From positions 1-53,067 of IMG/VR virus record IMGVR_UViG_3300049015_000032: a stretch of 53,067 bases of DNA. The stretch is one strand, 5' to 3'. Below the pieces are notes generated by a model. The model was not told where the DNA came from. It did no database searches and saw only the letters and a program-made list of their open reading frames with translations. The translations under genes were made by a program, and so were the position numbers. This DNA comes from a virus. Its lineage: Duplodnaviria; Caudoviricetes. How positions within the stretch are numbered: position 1 is the stretch's first letter; each line of letters begins with the position of its first letter. This document shows, in pieces, positions 6,196 through 53,067 of the stretch.

Positions 6196-6717
6196 TTATG
6201 GCTGGACTGATTCGGCGGCTTCAAGTTGGCCTACAACATCATCAGGCAGTGTCCACAAACCCTGTTGCCCGCGATACGGCATAGGCGTTTTGAGCATTCG
6301 CACGTTCTCTAAGCGCCATGCCCAACGTCCATGCCCAAAGTCCCCAAACTGTCTCACGCGGCCTGTAAGGGACTGGTGTATCAAGTGCGCCTGATACATC
6401 CCGGTCAATTCAGCAGTGCAGACAATCGCGCCAAAAGGCAGTTGACCCAAATTCCAAGAGGCCAGCCCTTCACGTTCTTTCCAAAGTTTGAAGGCGTCAT
6501 AGGCGGCGCGAGTAAAGCCTGAATCTTCTGGGAACAGTTCGGGCTTGGCTTTGAGAACAGCAATCCGATCATTCAACGCCTTCGTCTCATTCTGAGTTTT
6601 TGAGGCGTGAATGGCGATTGGTCCAGTATAAGGTGTATACCAGGAACGGGTCTCATATGTCTTCTCACCAATCGCAATCAGCGAGGCATGTGGTTGCCAG
6701 AGAGATATACATTTCAT
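6196..6717 (-). CDS. ASCH domain protein
   Basis: MKCISLWQPHASLIAIGEKTYETRSW...IAIHAS...GAIV...W.L..VR...P.RGQQGLW, a typical ASCH signature. Confidence 0.9.
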   Translation of the reverse strand: MKCISLWQPHASLIAIGEKTYETRSWYTPYTGPIAIHASKTQNETKALNDRIAVLKAKPELFPEDSGFTRAAYDAFKLWKEREGLASWNLGQLPFGAIVCTAELTGMYQAHLIHQSLTGRVRQFGDFGHGRWAWRLENVRMLKTPMPYRGQQGLWTLPDDVVGQLEAAESVQP

Positions 6718-7204: not shown

Positions 7205-7594
7205 TCAGAAGCCCGGCAGTCGCAGCCGCCTGTCAGCTTTAGGCGCGGGTTTGTCGTCATCGTCCGCATCGAAATCGCCTTCATCATCAGGCGAACCAAC
7301 CCCATCACGAGCGTGTAACTGCCACGTGGTCAAACCGAGTTTCCCGTAAAACCACTCTTGCCACTCTATCGCGTAAGGGTACTTGTCAGGCTCACGGGCC
7401 ATAACATCGATAATGGCGCACGCTGGAGACATCCACACGGTTTGACCATCAAAGCGGCCCCGTTCGCCATAGTCGATAGCAAACGAAAACTGATCGGATT
7501 TTTTGCCTCTGATACGGGCGTCATAGCCAGCATCCACAATCGGACCGTAGTAGGTCATCTTGCCTACGAAGTCTTCTTTTTTCAGATCGCGCAT
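7205..7594 (-). CDS. Hypothetical protein with acidic tail
   Basis: ORF with GAGG RBS. Confidence 0.6.
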   Translation of the reverse strand: MRDLKKEDFVGKMTYYGPIVDAGYDARIRGKKSDQFSFAIDYGERGRFDGQTVWMSPACAIIDVMAREPDKYPYAIEWQEWFYGKLGLTTWQLHARDGVGSPDDEGDFDADDDDKPAPKADRRLRLPGF

Positions 7595-7637
7595 GGTCTT
7601 TAACCTCTCGCTTTGCGCAATGTCATTCTCAGCAAGC

Positions 7638-7736
7638 TTAAAATCGTCCGTCCATCACGAGTACGCAGGCGATGATGGCCAGGATCAGCAGCAGCGCGAG
7701 CAATCCTTCATAGAGTCGCGACCGCTTGCGCTTCAT
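7638..7736 (-). CDS. 32-aa single-TM small protein (not in the ORF track)
   Basis: MKRKRSRLYEGLLALLLILAIIACVLVMDGRF; ATGA overlap with the upstream stop. Confidence 0.5.
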   Translation of the reverse strand: MKRKRSRLYEGLLALLLILAIIACVLVMDGRF

Positions 7737-8143
7737 TTAAACCAGCCAATGGGAAGCGGCTCCGGCATGATCCACAGGTGGCGCATATTGGCCACGTTGA
7801 CAATCTGGCTATCCTGCGGATAGATTTCGACCGCCCACCATTCGCCATAGCCGCACTGCCGCTTAATCTCTTGCAGTTCGTCCCATGTCAGACCGTCCTG
7901 CCAGCGGCCGTTCGTGCCGAGCTTGACTCGACAAATGGACAGGCGCTTCAATTCTGGGTATTTGGCGGTATATTCCTCGAAGACCTGCGCCAGGTACTTG
8001 CTGGACTGAAAGACCAGCACGGGATCATGAGCGGTGTGTGGCAAGGCATCGGCTGGCAGAAGCGTGAGAACATCGGGCAGCTTCTGATCTTTGATATAGG
8101 CGTGCTGCTCAACCTGCATAGCGCGGCGTTGTTTGCGATTCAT
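7733..8143 (-). CDS. Conserved phage protein (DUF7694-like)
   Basis: LSI.R...TWDELQEIK...G.....AVEIYP....VNVANMRHLW motif common in phage early regions. Confidence 0.7.
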   Translation of the reverse strand: MNRKQRRAMQVEQHAYIKDQKLPDVLTLLPADALPHTAHDPVLVFQSSKYLAQVFEEYTAKYPELKRLSICRVKLGTNGRWQDGLTWDELQEIKRQCGYGEWWAVEIYPQDSQIVNVANMRHLWIMPEPLPIGWFK

Positions 8144-8191: not shown

Positions 8192-9262
8192 CTATCCAAA
8201 CGTCATATATTTGTCCATCGCTCGATCATGAAAGTTGGGCTTGAGGCCGATATACGCCAGCGTCACAGCGGCCAGTTTATGGCGCAGCAGCAGCTGAATA
8301 TCCGGGAGCGGCATGCCTGCGTCATAGGCCAGCGCTGCCGCCGTGCGCCGTGTGTCATGCACAGCGATGGTCTTGCCAAGCGCCGCATAGGTGCGCTTGG
8401 CAACAACATCGCGGATGGCCTGGTGACTGATGCCTTTGGCCGGGGTGTAGCGCGAGATCGCCAGATAAAAGCGATCTCGATGACGCGGCTGCCAGACAGC
8501 GGTCGACGTCTCAATGCGGCGCGGATCTTCATCAGACAGCCCCGCATTGAAGGCCTCGGTATACGCCAGCACGTCCCGGTAAGCCGTCCCACTCAGAGGA
8601 ACAGGGTCAACGTTGTTGCGTTTGCCGCGCACACGAATGATATAGCGATCCGAGCCAATGGGCGTGATAGCGGCGAGGCTGATGCGTGCCAGTTCTGCCA
8701 GGCGCAGGCCTGTTGAGAAGGCCACATGCAAAAGCGCGTAATCTCTTAAGCCGTTGATGGTGGCGCGATCAATCGCTTGCAGCACCGTGTTAACCTCAGT
8801 CAGCGTCAGACGATTAAATTCCGCACGCCACAGGGGAGGAATATTGCTGACGACCTCAGGGCGGGGGACAGGCATTGTCGCCGCCTGCCGAATCTGATCC
8901 CGACAATCCGCAACAAACTCGCGCGTGGTCCCTCTTAACCCCGTGATCGGCTGATAAGACAGGGCGCGTAGGTAGTGCCGCACGCTGGCCAGATACCGGG
9001 AATAAATGGTGCTGCTTTTCAGGCCGCGCATCACCAGGTGCGCCACATAAACACGCATCAGATCTGGCGTGGGGAGCGCATCCCCAGCCCACTGCATGAA
9101 GTATTTCAAGCCTGCCGTGTAGACAGTGGACGTGTGACCCTCCTCGGTGCGGCTACTGGGCAGACTGGCGATGTGCGCGTAGACTGCGTTCACGGCAGCG
9201 CGTGGGTCGAAGTAGTCCGACCAGACCAGCGTACTGGGGGCGACAAGCTGAATCTCCATCAT
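8192..9262 (-). CDS. Tyrosine recombinase/integrase
   Basis: RDYALL...TGLRLAEL, RGKR, HDTRR, LLRH, TLAY: complete R-K-H-R-H-Y catalytic set. Confidence 0.93.
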   Translation of the reverse strand: MMEIQLVAPSTLVWSDYFDPRAAVNAVYAHIASLPSSRTEEGHTSTVYTAGLKYFMQWAGDALPTPDLMRVYVAHLVMRGLKSSTIYSRYLASVRHYLRALSYQPITGLRGTTREFVADCRDQIRQAATMPVPRPEVVSNIPPLWRAEFNRLTLTEVNTVLQAIDRATINGLRDYALLHVAFSTGLRLAELARISLAAITPIGSDRYIIRVRGKRNNVDPVPLSGTAYRDVLAYTEAFNAGLSDEDPRRIETSTAVWQPRHRDRFYLAISRYTPAKGISHQAIRDVVAKRTYAALGKTIAVHDTRRTAAALAYDAGMPLPDIQLLLRHKLAAVTLAYIGLKPNFHDRAMDKYMTFG

Positions 9263-9531
9263 GATCGTGTATGCCCCTCGCGCCATTTGCGATCCGATTG
9301 CAGATGATCGGTTTTAGAGATTGGGTAGGGATCGTAAAGCGCCGAGTCCATCCCGCCGGGCAGTCGCTCCGCGCTCTCCAGTTCGTCCCTCTGTGTCCAT
9401 CCAGTGTCTGGATGCGGTGCAGCATCCCACCAGACAATGCACATCACGACCCCATTGACTGTTTCTTGGTGCTGGATATCCCCTGCGATATGCGTTCCCT
9501 TGAGGCGGACACGGTGTCCGAGCTTATTCAT
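9259..9531 (-). CDS. Small hypothetical protein (possibly SH3/KOW-like)
   Basis: MNKLGHRVRLKG...G.I......V.WD; overlaps both neighbours. Confidence 0.55.
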   Translation of the reverse strand: MNKLGHRVRLKGTHIAGDIQHQETVNGVVMCIVWWDAAPHPDTGWTQRDELESAERLPGGMDSALYDPYPISKTDHLQSDRKWREGHTRS

Positions 9532-10264
9532 TCCCCTGGCCTTCCTTATACTGTTGGTTTCGTGGGGATCTTTCCCCATGACTACGCGTAGCATTTTTAG
9601 GTCTGTTCCACTTTGCGCGTTGGTGATCTTCGCAGAGGCTATACACATATCGCTCAGTGACATACACGGGCTGATCGCACTGGCGGCATCGCAGCCTCTC
9701 GCCTGCATCCACCTGGGCGCGCCGCTTGGCCTGGCGCGCCGCTTCCTGTTCGCGGGTGACGATCGGCAAACAACTCACACAGTAGGCGGAGACGTGGCCG
9801 CTCGGATAGCGCTGACGGGGGGCGTCACAGCGTGAACAAGACGAGGTTTCAAGATTGTGCTTTTGCTTGTGGCGTCGTCGCCTGGCTTCATAAGCGCGCT
9901 CGCAGGCTGCGCAGTACGAGCGCGGCCGTGTCTTGCCTGGCATGCGTGGGTGTTCATGGCACTCAAGGCACATCGTTTTCGATCGCTTGGGGACGCATCG
10001 CCGCTGGATGGCGCGCAGCATCTTGATTCCATCTGGCAGGATGATCCACCACGAGCGATCTTTTGAAGGCGAATGTATCCAGCCCAGGCCCCGCATCCGC
10101 TCCAGCAGTCGCCGCGTATAGCCTGTTCCCTGGACTTCAACCGCAGGCTGCTGCGTCGGGCGCAAATCCTCATCCCACAGAAAAATGAGGATTTGCAACT
10201 GCTTGCGTGAGATGAAGGGCAGGCCATCAAGACGAATGTCTTTGGGGTAATCTTCTGCTCGCAT
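9524..10264 (-). CDS. Putative DNA-binding protein, wHTH-like N-terminus plus several CxxC Zn fingers
   Basis: LERMRGLGWI; CLEC, YCAAC, CSRC, YCVSC, CRQC, CEDH. Confidence 0.65.
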   Translation of the reverse strand: MRAEDYPKDIRLDGLPFISRKQLQILIFLWDEDLRPTQQPAVEVQGTGYTRRLLERMRGLGWIHSPSKDRSWWIILPDGIKMLRAIQRRCVPKRSKTMCLECHEHPRMPGKTRPRSYCAACERAYEARRRRHKQKHNLETSSCSRCDAPRQRYPSGHVSAYCVSCLPIVTREQEAARQAKRRAQVDAGERLRCRQCDQPVYVTERYVYSLCEDHQRAKWNRPKNATRSHGERSPRNQQYKEGQGNE

Positions 10265-17028: not shown

Positions 17029-17057
17029 TTGACACTGGTATTGAATCGGGATAGTAT
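17029..17057 (+). promoter_or_regulatory. Rightward sigma70-type promoter
   Basis: TTGACA, 17 bp, TAGTAT, upstream of the HTH gene. Confidence 0.75.
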
Positions 17058-17077
17058 TGAAAGGAAAGAATGCGAGG

Positions 17078-17341
17078 ATGGCCGTGTTAAACAGATTCCA
17101 AACCCTTCTTCGGAATAAGCGTGCCAAAGAAGATCGAGAGATCAAAATCGAGGATATCGCAGAAGAAATCAACATCTCGCGCGATACACTGTCGAGGTAT
17201 GCCAACCAGAGAATCAAGCGCTATGATTCAGCAACGGTCGAAGCCCTTTGCCGCTATTTCGGCGTTGAGGTGGGGGATTTTCTTTATCTTGAGCCAGGCA
17301 TTGAATTGGACAAAATTCGTCAAGCGGAGGCTCAACCATAA
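17078..17341 (+). CDS. XRE/Cro-C1 family HTH regulator
   Basis: IEDIAEEINISRDTLSRYAN...LCRYFGVEVGDFL. Confidence 0.88.
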   Translation: MAVLNRFQTLLRNKRAKEDREIKIEDIAEEINISRDTLSRYANQRIKRYDSATVEALCRYFGVEVGDFLYLEPGIELDKIRQAEAQP

Positions 17342-17577
17342 TGCCCGTAGCAGAACTTCGCTTGGTTGATCTCTGGGCTGACAAGATGAAGCGCGAAAAG
17401 CGTGTCATCCCTGTAACCGAGATCGCCCACGCCTGTGGTATAAAGCGCCAGAATGCCTACAAATGGTTAAACAATGAGATCAAATGCGCTCCGCTCAAAA
17501 CCATTGCGGCCCTGTGCTTGTATTTCGAGTGTACTCCCAACGATCTGATTGTAGTGAGAAGGGAGCATGCATCGTGA
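17341..17577 (+). CDS. Second XRE/Cro-C1 family HTH regulator
   Basis: VTEIAHACGIKRQNAYKWLNN...LCLYFECTPNDLI; TAATG coupling to the first. Confidence 0.88.
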   Translation: MPVAELRLVDLWADKMKREKRVIPVTEIAHACGIKRQNAYKWLNNEIKCAPLKTIAALCLYFECTPNDLIVVRREHAS

Positions 17578-17698: not shown

Positions 17699-17727
17699 AC
17701 TTCATGGGGATATATCCCCACGAAACA
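17699..17727. repeat. Palindromic site, consensus GTTTCGTGGGGATATATCCCCACGAAAC
   Basis: 17704-17727 is identical to 21333-21356; related copies at 9557-9581 (inverted), 17827-17854, 21263-21290, 13050-13071, 11220-11236. Confidence 0.85.
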
Positions 17728-17977
17728 AGTGGTTTATCCCATAAAAGCGAAGACCCCCACATTTAACGGATGCAGGGGTCTCAAAATTCAATTCGAAGCG
17801 CCTGACGCGCACTAACGAAAGGTTCGGTTTCGTGATGATATATTCACACGAGACATCATACCCTATTGGCCGTGCATTGGTCAACAGGTTCGCCACAATT
17901 GTGACGACTCTCCTATGCAGCGTTAAGATACAGCTGCCCCCCTCCCCTCTTGCCGCACTTCATGGGGGAATATCATC

Positions 17978-19090
17978 ATGACCACTCAGAAAGCACAACA
18001 CTCAGAGCGTATCCCAGGGCTGATGGCTGAAAAATCCATTCCAGCATATCCCCACCTTGCGTCTGTTTTGGGCGTCAACGAAGCCATTATCCTTCAGCAG
18101 GTCTATTTCTACGTAACTCTTCACAGCCGCAAGAAGAGTACTCAGCATTTTCACGATGGTAAGTTTTGGGTCTTTAACAGCTATAAACAGTGGCGGGATC
18201 AGCATTTCCCCTGGCTGACAGCGCGCGGCGTTCAAAGCATCATCCTCAGGCTGGAGACAAAAGGACTGCTCATCAGCCGACAGGGACTTGAGAATCCCCA
18301 GGATCGGCGCAAATGGTACACCATCGACCTTGAGAAGTTGGCAAAGCTCATTCCTACTTCAAAAATCAATAGTACACAGACTGCACGTCCAACAAACACT
18401 GACTGCACGTCCAACATGCATGAAATGATCGATGATTCTACAGAGAGTACTTCAGAGAATACATTCAGAGAAAAAGAACTACAGAAACAAACAACAACAG
18501 AAATCGATGTTGTTGTTGATTCGCCTGCCCTGCCCTACCGGGAACCAGAAGCGGAATCAGGAGAGCATTCCCTCGACGGAGAAGGGCACGATGCAACGGC
18601 TGTCAAAGCCTTTGTGCCGCACGAACAGCACCACGACGAACAGCCCTTTCCAAAAGTTCCGGTAAAAGGTTTTCCGGCCCTGGTTGCCGAACTCGTCAAA
18701 TTCAGAGTGCTACCTGTCACTGCACAGCGCCTCGTGGATCGGTATCCAGAAGTGGACGTGCGGTATGTCCTGGAGTATGCGCGCGGCGAATCGAGCCTGC
18801 GTAATCCCCCTGGCTTCGTCGTGGATGAATTAGACACGAGGAAACATGGCGTGTTAGCAGCACGTGATCAGAATAAATATATTCAGACGCTTTCGCCCTC
18901 TCCGCAGCCAAAAAGATTCATCCCGCCCGATGATTTCGTTTGCACCGATGAGGAGCGAGAAGAAATTGGGTTGATCGGATTTGAGCGTTTCATGGCTCTC
19001 CGACATGAGATAGAGCGATACGAAGCCGAAGATAGAGAACGTGCCACCGGGCAGACGTTGACCGTAGACCCACACATCGAATACGCTTAG
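17978..19090 (+). CDS. Phage replication initiator (wHTH)
   Basis: LGVNEAIILQQVYFY...GKFWVFNSYKQW...FPWL...LETKGLL...DRRKWYTID; C-terminal RNPPGFVV. Confidence 0.8.
   Translation: MTTQKAQHSERIPGLMAEKSIPAYPHLASVLGVNEAIILQQVYFYVTLHSRKKSTQHFHDGKFWVFNSYKQWRDQHFPWLTARGVQSIILRLETKGLLISRQGLENPQDRRKWYTIDLEKLAKLIPTSKINSTQTARPTNTDCTSNMHEMIDDSTESTSENTFREKELQKQTTTEIDVVVDSPALPYREPEAESGEHSLDGEGHDATAVKAFVPHEQHHDEQPFPKVPVKGFPALVAELVKFRVLPVTAQRLVDRYPEVDVRYVLEYARGESSLRNPPGFVVDELDTRKHGVLAARDQNKYIQTLSPSPQPKRFIPPDDFVCTDEEREEIGLIGFERFMALRHEIERYEAEDRERATGQTLTVDPHIEYA
18374..18520. other. Candidate replication origin inside the rep gene
   Basis: Two 21-bp repeats ACAC(A/T)GACTGCACGTCCAACA at a 22-bp period, then an A-rich CAGAGA/CAGAAA tract and the inverted repeat CAACAACA..TGTTGTTG. 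Confidence 0.5.
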
Positions 19091-19121
19091 AGTGCCCAGA
19101 AGGGCAGAGGACTTAAAGACC

Positions 19122-19913
19122 ATGAAGACGATTACACTCTTGAACGAAAAGGGAGGCGTGGGTAAGACGACCCTGGCACAGACATTAGCATCGGGTTTGG
19201 CGCGTGATGGATATACCGTCATGGCGATTGACAGCGATCCCCAGGGGACGCTGACGTATGGCATGGGCCAGCAGCGTGCGCCGCATTTCTACAATCTCAT
19301 CCAGCGCAAAGAACCCTGGGCCAACCTGGCTCGCCAGATCGCGCCGGATCGGATTGCGTCTGACACAAGGGGCCGTCTCTTTTTGCTCCCTGGGGACCGC
19401 GAGACTCGTAACCTCAATGTTGAGGATGCCGCCCTACTGCTCAAGCGCCTGAATGAGATCAAGCAAAGTTTTGATTACGTCATCATCGACACAGCGCCCA
19501 GCGCCAGCTTGCTCCATATCCTGGTGTATCTGGCCAGCGATTATATTCTTTACCCTACGCAGCTGGAGATGTTCTCGATGCAGGGCTTGAAGCAGTCAAT
19601 TCAGGTGATGGCTGAATACACGGAATTTCGCGCCGCCCGCCGCCTGCCGCCGATTGAGCTGCTCGGCATTGCCCCAACCATGACGCGCCTCAATACAGGC
19701 GGTCACACGGCAAACATGGCAGATCTGCAAAAGACGCCGTATAAGGTTTTGCGCCCGATTCACAATCGCATCGCCTGGTCCGACGCAGCCGCGACTCGGC
19801 GCAGCATCTTCGCCTATGATCCAACCTGTGAGGCTGCCAAAGATGCTGATACGTTTATCAACCAGGTGAAGCAGGTTCTGGGTATTGATGTGGCGGGGGT
19901 GCAGGATGGCTAA
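19122..19913 (+). CDS. parA: ParA family partition ATPase
   Basis: Deviant Walker A KGGVGKTT, IDSDPQG, DYVIIDTAP. Confidence 0.93.
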   Translation: MKTITLLNEKGGVGKTTLAQTLASGLARDGYTVMAIDSDPQGTLTYGMGQQRAPHFYNLIQRKEPWANLARQIAPDRIASDTRGRLFLLPGDRETRNLNVEDAALLLKRLNEIKQSFDYVIIDTAPSASLLHILVYLASDYILYPTQLEMFSMQGLKQSIQVMAEYTEFRAARRLPPIELLGIAPTMTRLNTGGHTANMADLQKTPYKVLRPIHNRIAWSDAAATRRSIFAYDPTCEAAKDADTFINQVKQVLGIDVAGVQDG

Positions 19914-20712
19914 GCCAAGACCTGCTCGTGAGAGTGCGTTTGAGGAAGAGGAATCTCCCATCCCTTTTATCTCTGCCACTGGAGTCAACGAGATCTACGA
20001 AAAGGGCTTTTCTGGATTGCCCGACAGCGTCTATGAAGACCCCTCCCAGAAGCGTATCGAGGAGCTGGAAGATCAACTCGCAAACATACTGCAAGGACAG
20101 TCTAACGGGCTTGTTGTGCAAGATGGCGCTCTTATGGTGCAGGGCTTTCAATTCTCGCCTACAGGCCTTGTGGCTCATGGCGAGATTGATAAGGAAAGCT
20201 GGACATCCATTGGAGGTCTGATTCACAGACTTCAGGGATCTATTCAATGGCTTATTGGCGATTGGATCGTGTATGGCCAAACTCTTAAGTATGGTGAACT
20301 GGAAGACATTGCCGAGTCGGTGGGCTATAAGCCGCAAAGTGTTTACAAATACAGCTACGTTTCGCGGAATGTTGAATTTTGCATACGTATGCAAAATCTA
20401 TCCTGGGCGCATCACCAGTTGGTTGCTCCTCTGACGCCAGAACAGCAAAAGTTTGCGCTGGAACATGCCACTACACAGAAGCTCTCTGTGGCGAAATTCA
20501 GAGATTGGATCAACGAACAAACCGGGCAACCTGCTGCTCCCGCCCTCCCCCACTCGGTAGGGCAGGGCGCTAAATCTGCGTTCAGTAGTTTAGAGAAATT
20601 GGCCCAGCGCGATCCTTCTACGTATAAACCAAAGGATAAAGTAGCCATTTTAGGGTATGCGGCACAGATGCAAGCATGGATCGACGATCTTGTAGCGAAG
20701 GCGAAATCATAA
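19906..20712 (+). CDS. LmbU-like DNA-binding protein (putative ParA partner)
   Basis: QWLIGDWIVYG...YG...IAESVGY..QSVYKYSYVSR...R..NLSWAHHQLVA...LSVAKFR; overlaps the parA stop. Confidence 0.7.
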   Translation: MAKPRPARESAFEEEESPIPFISATGVNEIYEKGFSGLPDSVYEDPSQKRIEELEDQLANILQGQSNGLVVQDGALMVQGFQFSPTGLVAHGEIDKESWTSIGGLIHRLQGSIQWLIGDWIVYGQTLKYGELEDIAESVGYKPQSVYKYSYVSRNVEFCIRMQNLSWAHHQLVAPLTPEQQKFALEHATTQKLSVAKFRDWINEQTGQPAAPALPHSVGQGAKSAFSSLEKLAQRDPSTYKPKDKVAILGYAAQMQAWIDDLVAKAKS

Positions 20713-21215
20713 TGGTTAAAGAGATTTTGCTCACTCAGGGGGCGATCTCTCTGGTGTCTGATGAGGATGCGGATTTGGCGGCCTACTCTTGGTATGTGCA
20801 GCGCTTAAAGTATGCCTTAAGACTCAGCCACAAGGATGATCGCGGGATTTGGGTGCGTCAATATCTTCATCGCGCAGTCATGGAAAAGGTGATAGGTCGT
20901 GCATTGCAACGCTATGAGTCTGTTGATCATATTGATCGGAACGGCCTTAATAACACACGCGAAAACCTACGCATCGTCAATCAAAGTCAAAATTGTGCCA
21001 ATCGCAGTCTTGGCATCAATAGTAAGAGTGGATATAAAGGCGTGTCGTGGAACGCGCAACTGCAGAAGTGGTGTGCATACATATCCTTCCATCGCAAGAA
21101 AATGCATTTAGGATACTTCACGAGTAAGCACGATGCTGCGCGTGCTTATAACGCAAAAGCAATTGAACTGCAAGGAATTTACGCCAACGTTAACGACGTT
21201 GATGAACGGTTGTAG
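20712..21215 (+). CDS. HNH endonuclease with AP2 domain
   Basis: LHRAVM...VDHIDRNGLNNTRENLR; SGYKGVSW...HLGYF...AARAYN. Confidence 0.92.
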   Translation: MVKEILLTQGAISLVSDEDADLAAYSWYVQRLKYALRLSHKDDRGIWVRQYLHRAVMEKVIGRALQRYESVDHIDRNGLNNTRENLRIVNQSQNCANRSLGINSKSGYKGVSWNAQLQKWCAYISFHRKKMHLGYFTSKHDAARAYNAKAIELQGIYANVNDVDERL

Positions 21216-21262: not shown

Positions 21263-21356
21263 ATCTCGCGTTGATATATCCCCACGAAACGCATAACGCC
21301 CCAGATGATGGGGCGTTACGATTCTTATAGTTATGGGGATATATCCCCACGAAACA
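21263..21356. repeat. Two copies of the palindromic site separated by a hairpin
   Basis: GATATATCCCCACGAAAC at 21273 and 21338; TAACGCCCCA/TGGGGCGTTA stem at 21294-21318. Confidence 0.85.
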
Positions 21357-23348: not shown

Positions 23349-23702
23349 ATGATCATGACCACATCACAAACCATTACCCTGACCATCGCAGGCATCACCG
23401 TCACCGTGACCGTTGCGACCGATGGCATCACTGTCGTGCCCGATGCGCCTGTTGCTGCTAACGCGCCATCTGTTGCGACTGCCACAACACGCACACCGAT
23501 TGCCGATTCAAGCGTCATCGCCTCCGTTGGCTACAACGTCATCCATCGGACGCTGGAAATCGAGTTTCGCAGCGGCAAGGTTTACCAGTATGACCAGGTT
23601 CCGGCCTATGTCTATGACGAGCTGATGGAAACCCGTTCCAAAGGGCAGTACTTCAGCTACTACATTCGCGGGCAATACCGGACGCATGAAATCAGCCGCT
23701 AA
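23349..23702 (+). CDS. KTSC domain protein
   Basis: SSVIASVGYN...LEIEFRSGKVYQYDQVP..VYDELM...SKGQYF...IRGQY. Confidence 0.9.
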   Translation: MIMTTSQTITLTIAGITVTVTVATDGITVVPDAPVAANAPSVATATTRTPIADSSVIASVGYNVIHRTLEIEFRSGKVYQYDQVPAYVYDELMETRSKGQYFSYYIRGQYRTHEISR

Positions 23703-51014: not shown

Positions 51015-53067
51015 TTACAGCACAGGCGTGCCATAACAGCGGCAGCCGGGATGCACGGGAATCGTGATGCCATCCCAACCCCCTTCGAGCGTGCCAATCT
51101 TCCCGGCCAGCGGCTTGCAGGTCGGACAGACATGCGTGTCCTGCACGGTGCGGAACTTCATCCTGGTCACCCCGGCATCCGTCCAGCGCTGGATCGCGCC
51201 TTCGTTGTAGGCGCGGTTGCTTTCGGTCTGGGCAATCAGGGCCGCCCGATCCGGATCGTTAAAGACCGGCTCCAGGAGGCGGGTTAACTCAGACAGCGGC
51301 GCGCCGCTCTCAAGCCACTCGGCGATGATGCGCTGCACGTCGGCGAGGGTTGTGGCATCGATGCCGCGGATCAGCTTGCCGACATACGTTTCGACCGCGC
51401 CAATCGCATCCGTCGGCACAAGCTCCCAGTCGATGTTTAATTCAGCCGCCTTCTGCGGATTGAGGTTGGTGCGCTTGCGGACAAGCGCCTGCTGGCCCGC
51501 GCCCATGCCTGCCATGAAGAGCTTGGCAATCACGCCGGGTTCCTCTGGCGTGCCCGTCCACTGCTGGACCAGATCCGGATGGAAGTCGGTGAGAAGGGCT
51601 TCCACGTCAGACACGCCAATGTCACGGCTGAGGCGGCTTTCGAGCCGACGCCAGACCTCGCGCATGTAATCGCGCAGCCAGTCCGTGCCGAGGGTCTTCA
51701 TGAGGCGGTCGTAATCGCCCCACCACTCCTTCGCCTGGTCCAGTGTCACGACATCCGGGTCATCCGCGACCGTCTTTTTGAGGCGCTCGCGCAGCCCCTC
51801 GAAGAGCTGCCGGACCTGGCCCTTTTCCGCGCAGGCATTGACCTGGGCCACCAGATCGCCCTGCAGCGTGCCCTCGATGACATGAAATTCAAACGCGCGT
51901 TTGGGCTTGCCCCAGCGATTGAGCGTGAATTTCTCATAGGCGGCCAGCTCATCGAGCAGCGGGTCGCCGGACGGCAGATCAGCTTTCATCGGCGCGGGCT
52001 CTTCGGCGGCGGCCTGGATGGTGGCGGGCTGCCCGCAGGACGCGCGGCCAATCACCTCATACTGGCCATTGCGCTTGACAGTCACCTGCACCTCAGACGG
52101 AGACACGCGCAGGCGGCTCTGAAAGGTCACAGGCGGGATGCGCTGTTTGGCGTAGCCGACGGTGACGTGTGGTTTCCAGTTCTGGGGGGCGCTGTGCTGC
52201 ACAGTCTGGATGCCCAGCTGCTGGCAGGCCAGGTAAATATCCTCCTGGTACTCTTCGAGGGTGGCGTCCCGACGGATGCGGAAGTGCAGCGCATGTTCGC
52301 CCACTTTGTCAAAGCTGGCCAGCGATCCGATATTCACGTTGAACTCGGGTGTCAGTATGTCTGCGACGAACTGCGCCAGCTGCTCCGCCGCCGCGTCATC
52401 CACTGCGGGGGCCGAGACCAGCGTGAGATGGAAGGTGTCGGGCGCGCTCCACTCAATCGGGATCGCGCCAAACTTGGTCTTCAGCGTGTTCTGCAGCTGC
52501 AGCAGATCAACGTTGTCACTCAGCGAGAGGATCACCGCCAGACTCTGCGCGTCTTTCTGCGGCTCGGGGGGTGGGTCGGACGGGACAGGCGCAGGCAGCG
52601 CGGGCGGCGTTTCAGGGCTGACCGTCGGCGCGCTCAGGCCAAAGGGTGAGCCGCCAGGCAGCGGCGGCGGCGGCATGGCGCCGAGTTTGTCGGCCGGGGT
52701 CACAATCACCCCGGCCGGAATGTAGAAGACATTGCCGCTGGGAATGGCCTCCATATCGAGCGCCTCGCGGTACTCGTTCACTGTCAGTCCACCGCTGACC
52801 AGCTGGCTGTTGAGCGCAGCGGCTTTGGCCTGTTTGTCTTCGGCGAGGGCCAGCAGATTCTTGGCGTCAAACCAGACCCGCAGACCGGACCGGCGATCAA
52901 AGAAGGGCAGCAGCTCACGGGTCAGATCTTCGGCCAGCTGCTCGGCCTGCGGAATGATCGTCTCCTCGTACAGGCTGATGCGCTGCTCGGGGGCGCTCTG
53001 ATAATTGGCATCATCCCAGGCGCCCGCGACCGACAGCGGCACGCCGAAGCCCGCGCAAATCTCGCGC
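51015..53067 (-). CDS. C-terminal part of the portal fusion: portal end + 2H phosphoesterase (~52030-52550) + MuF head morphogenesis domain
   Basis: LTVNEYRE.L portal end; FHLTL and PHVTVGY; IAQTESNRAYN...CPTC...HPGCRC. Confidence 0.9.
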   Translation of the reverse strand, partial: REICAGFGVPLSVAGAWDDANYQSAPEQRISLYEETIIPQAEQLAEDLTRELLPFFDRRSGLRVWFDAKNLLALAEDKQAKAAALNSQLVSGGLTVNEYREALDMEAIPSGNVFYIPAGVIVTPADKLGAMPPPPLPGGSPFGLSAPTVSPETPPALPAPVPSDPPPEPQKDAQSLAVILSLSDNVDLLQLQNTLKTKFGAIPIEWSAPDTFHLTLVSAPAVDDAAAEQLAQFVADILTPEFNVNIGSLASFDKVGEHALHFRIRRDATLEEYQEDIYLACQQLGIQTVQHSAPQNWKPHVTVGYAKQRIPPVTFQSRLRVSPSEVQVTVKRNGQYEVIGRASCGQPATIQAAAEEPAPMKADLPSGDPLLDELAAYEKFTLNRWGKPKRAFEFHVIEGTLQGDLVAQVNACAEKGQVRQLFEGLRERLKKTVADDPDVVTLDQAKEWWGDYDRLMKTLGTDWLRDYMREVWRRLESRLSRDIGVSDVEALLTDFHPDLVQQWTGTPEEPGVIAKLFMAGMGAGQQALVRKRTNLNPQKAAELNIDWELVPTDAIGAVETYVGKLIRGIDATTLADVQRIIAEWLESGAPLSELTRLLEPVFNDPDRAALIAQTESNRAYNEGAIQRWTDAGVTRMKFRTVQDTHVCPTCKPLAGKIGTLEGGWDGITIPVHPGCRCYGTPVL
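52942..53067. repeat. 126-bp terminal direct repeat, right copy
   Basis: Identical to 20-145. Confidence 0.95.

Follow-up and report, generated by a model that had tools for sequence, protein, structure and literature searches.

Type Ib partition systems, such as ParF-ParG of TP228 and delta-omega of pSM19035, are composed of a short ParA without an N-terminal helix-turn-helix (HTH) and a small ribbon-helix-helix partner, whose flexible basic N-terminal tail stimulates the ATPase. Canonical parS sites can lie within coding sequence, as is known for Bacillus subtilis, where a parS is found within the parB gene, spo0J. CTP binding was held to be a general ParB feature until ParT was described in 2025.

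The ParA-ParT-parS (ParATS) system of the Streptomyces coelicolor plasmid SCP2 contains ParT, a CTPase-less ParB-like protein (PMC12260392, PNAS 2025). [quoted passage not shown] Loading of ParT takes place at an 18-bp inverted repeat within parT, its diffusion requires no NTP, and 44 of the 45 ParA-linked ParT homologues belong to Actinomycetota. Neither LmbU nor Chloroflexota is mentioned in that main text (PMC12260392). The regulator LmbU has been modelled on Spo0J templates; in its published account, it binds a palindrome through its HTH, represses its own gene, and has an N-terminal auto-inhibitory domain (PMC6510168).

A phage cassette in which parA overlaps the gene of an LmbU-like protein was analysed here. 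The original prediction proposed this pair as a new partition system. Newness at that level does not hold, since the coupling of ParA with a CTPase-less ParB-like protein has already been published as ParATS of SCP2 (PMC12260392). A search of the literature by title and abstract found no paper describing a ParA-LmbU pair. The cassette is probably a type-I-like partition cassette of the ParATS kind with an LmbU-type partner, in a phage that would persist as a plasmid; the candidate centromere lies within the partner gene.

Gene organisation and conservation of the cassette

The window, which is the whole stretch of DNA that was analysed, was a phage record of 53,067 bp with a CheckV completeness of 100%. 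It contained a large terminase gene (1107–2576), a portal gene (51015–53042), a tail fibre gene, and a tyrosine recombinase gene (8192–9286). No match was obtained when the INPHARED phage collection was searched at the DNA and protein levels. The phage infects Chloroflexota bacteria and is likely a phage-plasmid of uncultured Anaerolineae. The rep gene adjoining the cassette and the complete record with terminase, portal, and tail fibre genes are points for a partition role in this temperate phage, which probably persists as a plasmid. Given its tyrosine recombinase, the phage may instead integrate and not be maintained as a plasmid. The GC content of the cassette block was approximately 0.49–0.53, against approximately 0.58–0.62 across most of the remaining window.

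Two Cro/C1-type HTH genes (17057–17341 and 17341–17577) were located upstream of a DnaD-like replication initiator gene, rep (17978–19090, + strand), which lay directly 5' of parA and forms the context of the cassette. The rep product matched phrog_6493 (DnaD-like helicase loader, 4e-24) and phrog_11233 (replication initiation protein, 1.9e-16) and had no match in Pfam. The parA gene (19122–19913, + strand) encoded a ParA ATPase of the short type (263 aa), with a deviant Walker A motif and no N-terminal HTH; its open reading frame covered 19092–19913, with an ATG at 19122 (MKTITLLNEKGGVGKT). The protein matched PF13614 (4.8e-32), PF01656 (3.1e-18), and phrog_164 (1.6e-44), as well as NF041546, ParA_partition, at 4.6e-28, which was under the cut-off of that family. 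The KGGVGKT sequence was unchanged across 27 ParA orthologues.

The partner gene (19906–20712, + strand; open reading frame 19885–20712) began with an ATG at 19906 (MAKPRPAR) and encoded a 268-aa LmbU-like protein of the ParB DNA-binding domain type, with no CTPase domain and a ParT-like architecture. It overlapped parA by 8 nt (GAT GGC TAA / ATG GCT AAG), downstream of a G-rich stretch, and the overlap that had been predicted between parA and a 268-aa gene was borne out. The partner gene was abutted by an HNH-AP2 endonuclease gene (20676–21215, + strand), whose product matched PF13392 (7.1e-8), PF00847 (4.8e-5), and phrog_99 (1.4e-37).

Searches with the family alignment yielded 41 loci, composed of 9 viral contigs and 32 genome contigs. 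The genome loci came from Anaerolineae, Phototrophicaceae, and other Chloroflexota metagenome-assembled genomes (MAGs), plus one Solirubrobacterales. The HNH-AP2 gene was absent from all 41 related loci except the window's own copy, L042, and is probably an insertion outside the cassette proper. In 37 of the 41 loci, the partner was immediately preceded by a ParA open reading frame, so that the survey of neighbourhoods proposed in the original prediction found the pair to be kept; the loci without an adjacent ParA were L006, L007, L009, and L038. The start codon of the partner fell between 23 nt ahead of the parA stop codon and 11 nt beyond it. When pairwise identities of ParA were compared with those of the partner, the Spearman coefficient was 0.73 across 351 pairs; a divergent subset of 16 gave 0.49, a value that none of 1000 label permutations reached. 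On these identities, the correlation shows co-inheritance and not contact.

At E<=0.001, the family profile matched 10,617 cluster representatives, of which 678 remained at E<=1e-30. At E<=1e-10, 3 of the 301 genomes sampled from the class had a match, as did 15 of 81 genomes in the family of one host-like genome. Some MAGs had up to 8 copies, mostly on numbered contigs and with the match within a few kb of the contig start. In approximately 20 Phototrophicaceae/Aggregatilineales genomes, a homologous pair lay amid conserved housekeeping synteny, with esterase, MBL-fold, nitroreductase, SDR, and amidohydrolase genes as neighbours. All five such genomes examined also held a ParA beside a protein of 364–423 aa with a weak ParB_N match (26.7–31.5 bits in the three pairs scanned). 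The chromosomal pair is therefore an additional system, and replacement of ParB in Phototrophicaceae was rejected, as all five genomes keep a ParA with a ParB_N-type neighbour.

Family and predicted fold of the partner protein

The partner matched no family in Pfam or PHROG at default thresholds. ParB_N (PF02195) gave no match even at E<=10, none of 42 partner homologues carried a precomputed Pfam domain, and a phmmer search of PDB sequences returned nothing meaningful. The NCBIfam model LmbU_fam_TF (NF038070) matched residues 87–213 with an E-value of 7.8e-20 and 71.5 bits, which falls below its curated cut-off of 125 bits. The chromosomal relatives scored 81.5–82.1 bits, and one Streptomyces member scored 228.5. 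When plasmids were searched by tblastn, 23 actinomycete records were matched with 25.5–32.8% identity, and in 20 of the 23 an LmbU family regulator was annotated under the match. The LmbU homology named in the original prediction was confirmed by both searches. The absence of a ParB CTPase domain with its GxxR motif, also predicted, agrees with the lack of any Pfam match, and a protein of 268 aa with an HTH domain is unlike a ribbon-helix-helix adaptor, as had been stated. The predicted WLIGDW...LSWAHH core was recovered as well, with QWL.GDW and HH invariant among 32 homologues.

The N-terminal basic peptide of the partner (MAKPRPARESAF; 19906–19941, + strand) is presumed to be a ParA-contacting tail by analogy with the SRR of ParT. 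Met1 was invariant and Arg8 was present in at least 90% of the 32 homologues, and the pattern M-(P/A)-K-P...R was conserved. At least two Lys or Arg residues occurred within the first 10 residues of all 36 ParA-linked partners, and 24 of the 36 began with MS(S/R/N)(R/Q)R; these counts depend on our own choice of the start codon nearest the parA stop. Residues 1–18 had a pLDDT below 50 in the structure model, in keeping with the basic flexible N-terminus that had been proposed. A complex prediction of the ParA dimer with ATP and partner residues 1–45 gave a score of 0.12 and a mark of 0.32, which speak neither for nor against contact.

The partner model was built by AlphaFold2 on the 32-sequence alignment and had a pLDDT of 78.5. 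It consisted of the disordered tail (residues 1–18), two helices (residues 24–37 and 46–65), four short strands (residues 70–90), a long helix (residues 96–126), a helical domain (residues 132–206), a low-confidence linker (residues 214–220), and two C-terminal helices. The long helix and the HTH DNA-binding domain formed the LmbU core (residues 96–206; 20191–20523, + strand). In a Foldseek search of the PDB, the best matches of the partner were all DNA-binding domains of the ParB family, from Noc, Spo0J, ParB, KorB, and VirB. The top match was the Noc domain (6y93_A; TM 0.77, r.m.s.d. of 2.3 Å over 100 columns); the ParB domain 6s6h_A was matched with an r.m.s.d. of 2.5 Å, and 1vz0, 4umk, 7ol9, 1r71, and 3w2a were also among the matches. 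The HTH region gave a weak sequence match to PF17762 (E 0.15), and the best PDB sequence-profile match, also weak (E 0.28), was to the HTH region of Helicobacter pylori Spo0J (4umk_A) in the same region.

From the ParB-family matches of this model and the Spo0J-templated model of LmbU, the LmbU fold is predicted to be the ParB DNA-binding domain, and the partner is therefore a truncated ParB relative without the CTPase domain. The original prediction placed the protein "instead of ParB" and named a cryptic ParB fold as evidence against itself. The wording is right for the CTPase domain, which is absent, and wrong for the LmbU-like core, which has the HTH fold of ParB, Noc, and KorB; a cryptic ParB fold was found by Foldseek in that core, so that this evidence against the prediction is half present.

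Palindromes within and around the operon

A perfect 18-bp palindrome (TTTGCATACGTATGCAAA), the candidate parS, was located within the partner gene at 20378–20395, and its centre was the codon of an invariant arginine (Arg161 in the window). TTTGCATACGTATGCAAA occurred once in the window and was absent from shuffled sequences. At the same codon position, a palindrome with at most one mismatch was present in 34 of 40 homologous genes, comprising 33 of the 39 genes ungapped in the codon alignment and L003, which was gapped there and had a perfect palindrome; L004 and L005 were left out of the codon alignment as duplicates of L003. Of the intragenic palindromes, 18 were perfect, and these represented 11 distinct sequences. 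At least two Watson-Crick types occurred at six of the nine base pairs, which are compensatory changes; the symmetry was therefore preserved through changes in both halves even as the encoded residues varied. At the other positions of the codon alignment, never more than one gene had such a palindrome. Two loci, L034 and L036, had an intragenic palindrome with two mismatches, and L007, L009, L020, and L039 had none.

Copies were also found outside the gene. L016 carried five downstream intergenic copies of its own palindrome with a spacing of 134–155 bp, and L020 carried four downstream intergenic copies with the same GGTACGTACC core and a spacing of about 250 bp. L015, L017, and L018 had degenerate single copies 11–49 bp downstream of the gene. 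Such repeated palindromes near the operon were confined to a minority of loci. From the fixed codon position, the compensatory changes, and the copies outside the gene, the intragenic palindrome is far more likely a DNA site than a coding accident. Recognition-helix residues showed no clear link with the half-site sequence beyond what phylogeny explains.

The cassette would work as a type-I-like pair of a short ParA ATPase and a centromere-binding partner. A partner dimer would bind the 18-bp palindrome within its own gene (20378–20395) and accumulate at this site, its N-terminal basic peptide would stimulate nucleoid-bound ParA-ATP, and the ParA gradient would carry the phage genome. We infer that the partner binds at the site and contacts ParA, that it slides or clamps as ParT does, and that the prophage lives as a plasmid. 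Several observations count against partition. L020 and L039 had a ParA and no intragenic palindrome, and the window had one intragenic copy only. Its repeated palindromes nearby differ in sequence. In L006 and L038, the adjacent ParA was absent and the perfect intragenic palindrome was kept; the site may therefore serve the DNA-binding protein generally, for example in autoregulation, rather than partition specifically.

The main rival is a chiefly regulatory role. In this alternative, which is unlikely, the partner acts above all in transcriptional control, as LmbU and KorB do, and binds its own palindrome and perhaps the flanking ones to control the rep-parA operon or lysogeny genes, and ParA is a co-regulator or an unrelated neighbour. 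Type I centromere-binding proteins commonly autoregulate, and a chiefly regulatory role is compatible with a dual role, so the two are not exclusive. Besides the relatives that keep the palindrome without ParA, it draws on the homology of the partner to LmbU regulators and on the promoter-like positions of the flanking palindromes, which are found in the gap that separates rep from the HTH genes and ahead of the next gene. Genuine LmbU relatives regulate transcription within biosynthetic clusters that have no ParA, which counts against partition, and LmbU itself has a palindrome as its binding site and acts as a repressor of its own gene (PMC6510168). However, regulation alone leaves unexplained the overlapping parA in 37 of 41 loci and the conserved basic tail, and the arrays of four to five sites downstream of the operon resemble centromeres and not operators. 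The two Streptomyces LmbU regulator genes that were sampled, both without ParA, also lacked the intragenic palindrome.

Five copies of another palindrome surrounded the rep-parA-partner module. Copy 1 (TTCATGGGGATATATCCCCACGAA; 17699–17726) lay between the HTH genes and rep, followed by a degenerate copy 2 (17827–17853) and a degenerate copy 3 (17957–17981; 80% to copy 1), which overlapped the rep start codon. Copy 4 (21263–21290) was downstream of the HNH gene and was followed by copy 5 (21328–21355). A GC-rich hairpin (17750–17782) was present between copies 1 and 2, and a further GC-rich hairpin (21294–21318) between copies 4 and 5. An idealised 22-mer with at most three mismatches had four matches in the window, one of them at 9560, against none in 100 shuffles. 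The palindrome pairs described in the original prediction as flanking the operon are real in this sense, above chance. A second palindrome pair in the window (16498 and 20202) was judged to be chance, as approximately 0.7 such pairs are expected by our estimate.

Multi-copy sites that flank the operon are known in partition loci. The centromere could accordingly be the flanking GGGGATATATCCCC palindromes, bound by the LmbU-like protein, and the intragenic palindrome could be, for example, an RNA hairpin or a recombination site. This arrangement, for which the five copies around the module and the one at 9560 speak, is improbable. The GGGGATATATCCCC sequence is unrelated to the intragenic palindrome conserved across the family, and the repeated operon-side sites of relatives copy their own intragenic type (L016) or share its core (L020). 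Furthermore, the closest syntenic phage, L001, had a palindrome of another sequence in the corresponding position ahead of rep, again with a 129-bp spacing; such sites are therefore tied to the rep or HTH genes and not to the partner. Other potential binders of the flanking palindromes are Rep and the two Cro/C1-type HTH proteins (17057–17577), for which binding is no less likely than for the partner. With no tie to the partner, the flanking palindromes do not stand as the predicted centromere, for which the intragenic palindrome is, by its pattern of conservation, the better candidate.

It is very unlikely that the pair positions some other cargo, as many ParA-like ATPases do, or interferes with a host system by hijacking or mimicking the chromosomal copy that some Anaerolineae hosts carry: the homologous pair in housekeeping synteny and the separate ParA and ParB_N pair in five of those genomes would fit, but the partner contains a DNA-binding domain and its DNA site is conserved, a phage rep gene is adjacent, and the palindrome of the phage partner differs from the chromosomal one, which argues against cross-talk.

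Comparison with known partition and regulatory systems

With partition by the ParA-partner pair as the preferred reading, a broader proposal is possible, although we hold it tentatively. ParA-coupled LmbU-type proteins may be a second family, independent of the first, of ParB-like DNA clamps that work without CTP and load at a palindrome in their own gene, with protein and site co-evolving, a shared origin with the large actinomycete family of LmbU regulators, and, for the chromosomal copy in Phototrophicaceae, a role as a second chromosome-organising system alongside a ParB_N-type pair. Co-evolution would be forced, because the site overlaps codons next to the HTH. If this is true, a second, sequence-unrelated family has reached the same solution as ParT in another phylum and in phages. 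The LmbU regulator family would be placed structurally with the ParB DNA-binding domain and would have a possible origin, and the candidate centromere would be an 18-bp intragenic palindrome kept by compensatory changes. Its versions, at least 11 of them distinct, could form a natural specificity series for protein-DNA recognition.

When the cassette was compared with type Ib systems, the short ParA without an N-terminal HTH and the flexible basic N-terminal tail of the partner were shared, whereas the partner was a 268-aa protein with a ParB-type HTH and not a small ribbon-helix-helix protein. With ParB/Spo0J, Noc, KorB, and VirB, the partner shares the HTH DNA-binding fold in its model, and it resembles canonical ParB as a ParA partner with a basic N-terminal tail. 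Canonical ParB differs in having the ParB_N/CTPase domain and GxxR, both of which the partner lacks, as well as a longer N-terminal region and a 16-bp palindrome in place of the 18-bp one. The LmbU family shares the W..DW and LSFAHH motifs with the partner. However, the context of the partner is rep-parA in a phage and not a biosynthetic gene cluster as for LmbU regulators; the two Streptomyces LmbU genes examined were in NRPS clusters, with neither a ParA nor an intragenic palindrome. The N-terminus of LmbU, in its published account, is an auto-inhibitory domain (PMC6510168), whereas the partner has a basic tail.

The closest resemblance was to ParATS of SCP2, whose gene arrangement was taken from record AL645771. 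In both, the gene after parA overlaps it and encodes a CTPase-less ParB-like protein. As far as the main text on ParT describes it (PMC12260392), the order of elements is also alike, with a basic flexible N-terminus, a low-confidence helix, a long helix, the HTH, a linker, and a C-terminal domain. The SRR of ParT is resembled by the N-termini of 24 of the 36 ParA-linked relatives. The parT gene contained one perfect 18-bp palindrome, a sequence feature, as the published site is given in figure form only; by sequence, this palindrome and that of the partner both lie in the DNA coding just after the HTH of their own gene. The partner was unlike ParT in its profile, with an hhalign probability of 0.5% when compared with ParT alone and of 0.2% when ParT was represented by a 27-sequence alignment, and ParT had no NCBIfam LmbU match. 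The partner model also has an extra helix (residues 46–65) and a four-strand beta element (residues 70–90). Because there is no profile similarity to ParT, the ParA-coupled LmbU-type partners are, on sequence comparison, a second family of the ParT kind, which occurs in phage and Chloroflexota, whereas ParA-linked ParT, according to the main text of its report (PMC12260392), belongs almost only to Actinomycetota.

Related loci and their palindromes

A conserved housekeeping synteny surrounded the homologous parA–partner pair in approximately 20 Phototrophicaceae/Aggregatilineales genomes (genome contigs L015, L017–L036, and L041). The intragenic palindrome of these chromosomal pairs, TTTCGGTACGTACCGAAA, was nearly invariant. 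In all five of the checked genomes with the housekeeping-synteny pair, a second ParA adjoined a 364–423 aa protein with a weak match to ParB_N.

Arrays of the 18-bp palindrome were located immediately 3′ of the partner gene in two loci with partner homologues, with five copies in L016 (3795–4393) and four copies in L020 (6676–7438). The array of L020 was followed by an AT-rich repeat region (7500–7960), which might be an origin. Perfect intragenic palindromes sharing the CCCGACGTCGGG core were also found without an adjacent ParA, at position 6254 of a viral contig (L006) and at position 6224 of a Solirubrobacterales chromosome (L038). The intragenic site may be older than, or outlive, the association with ParA.

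Three MAGs, G356, G322, and G348, each contained 3–8 different copies of the partner gene, and the matches were mostly on high-numbered contigs, no more than a few kb from the contig start. This pattern would be consistent with numerous phages or plasmids residing together, each with a distinct cassette.

Surroundings of the module in the phage genome

Two pairs of GGGGATATATCCCC-type palindromes flanked the module, the first (within 17699–17853) enclosing a GC-rich hairpin at 17750–17782 and the second (within 21263–21355) enclosing another at 21294–21318. A sixth, weaker copy was located close to a recombinase gene (9560–9581). These palindromes could be operators of Cro/C1-type helix-turn-helix proteins.

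The HNH-AP2 endonuclease gene (20676–21215), which abutted the partner gene, was not found in any of the 41 related loci, and is probably a homing-endonuclease insertion that separates the cassette from the palindromes on its downstream side. Further downstream of the module, the gene at 23349–23702 encoded a protein with a KTSC domain (PF13619, 2.2e-21). The terminase (1107–2576) and portal (51015–53042) genes were located at opposite ends of the window, both on the minus strand, an arrangement that fits a complete genome, either permuted or closed into a circle.

A possible link to HetZ

When compared with NCBIfam, the L016 partner protein weakly matched HetZ, a protein of heterocysts (E 0.013). 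A link between the two is possible, because cyanobacterial structural homologues are reported (PMC12260392) for ParT, the CTPase-less ParB-like partner of ParA from the Streptomyces plasmid SCP2.
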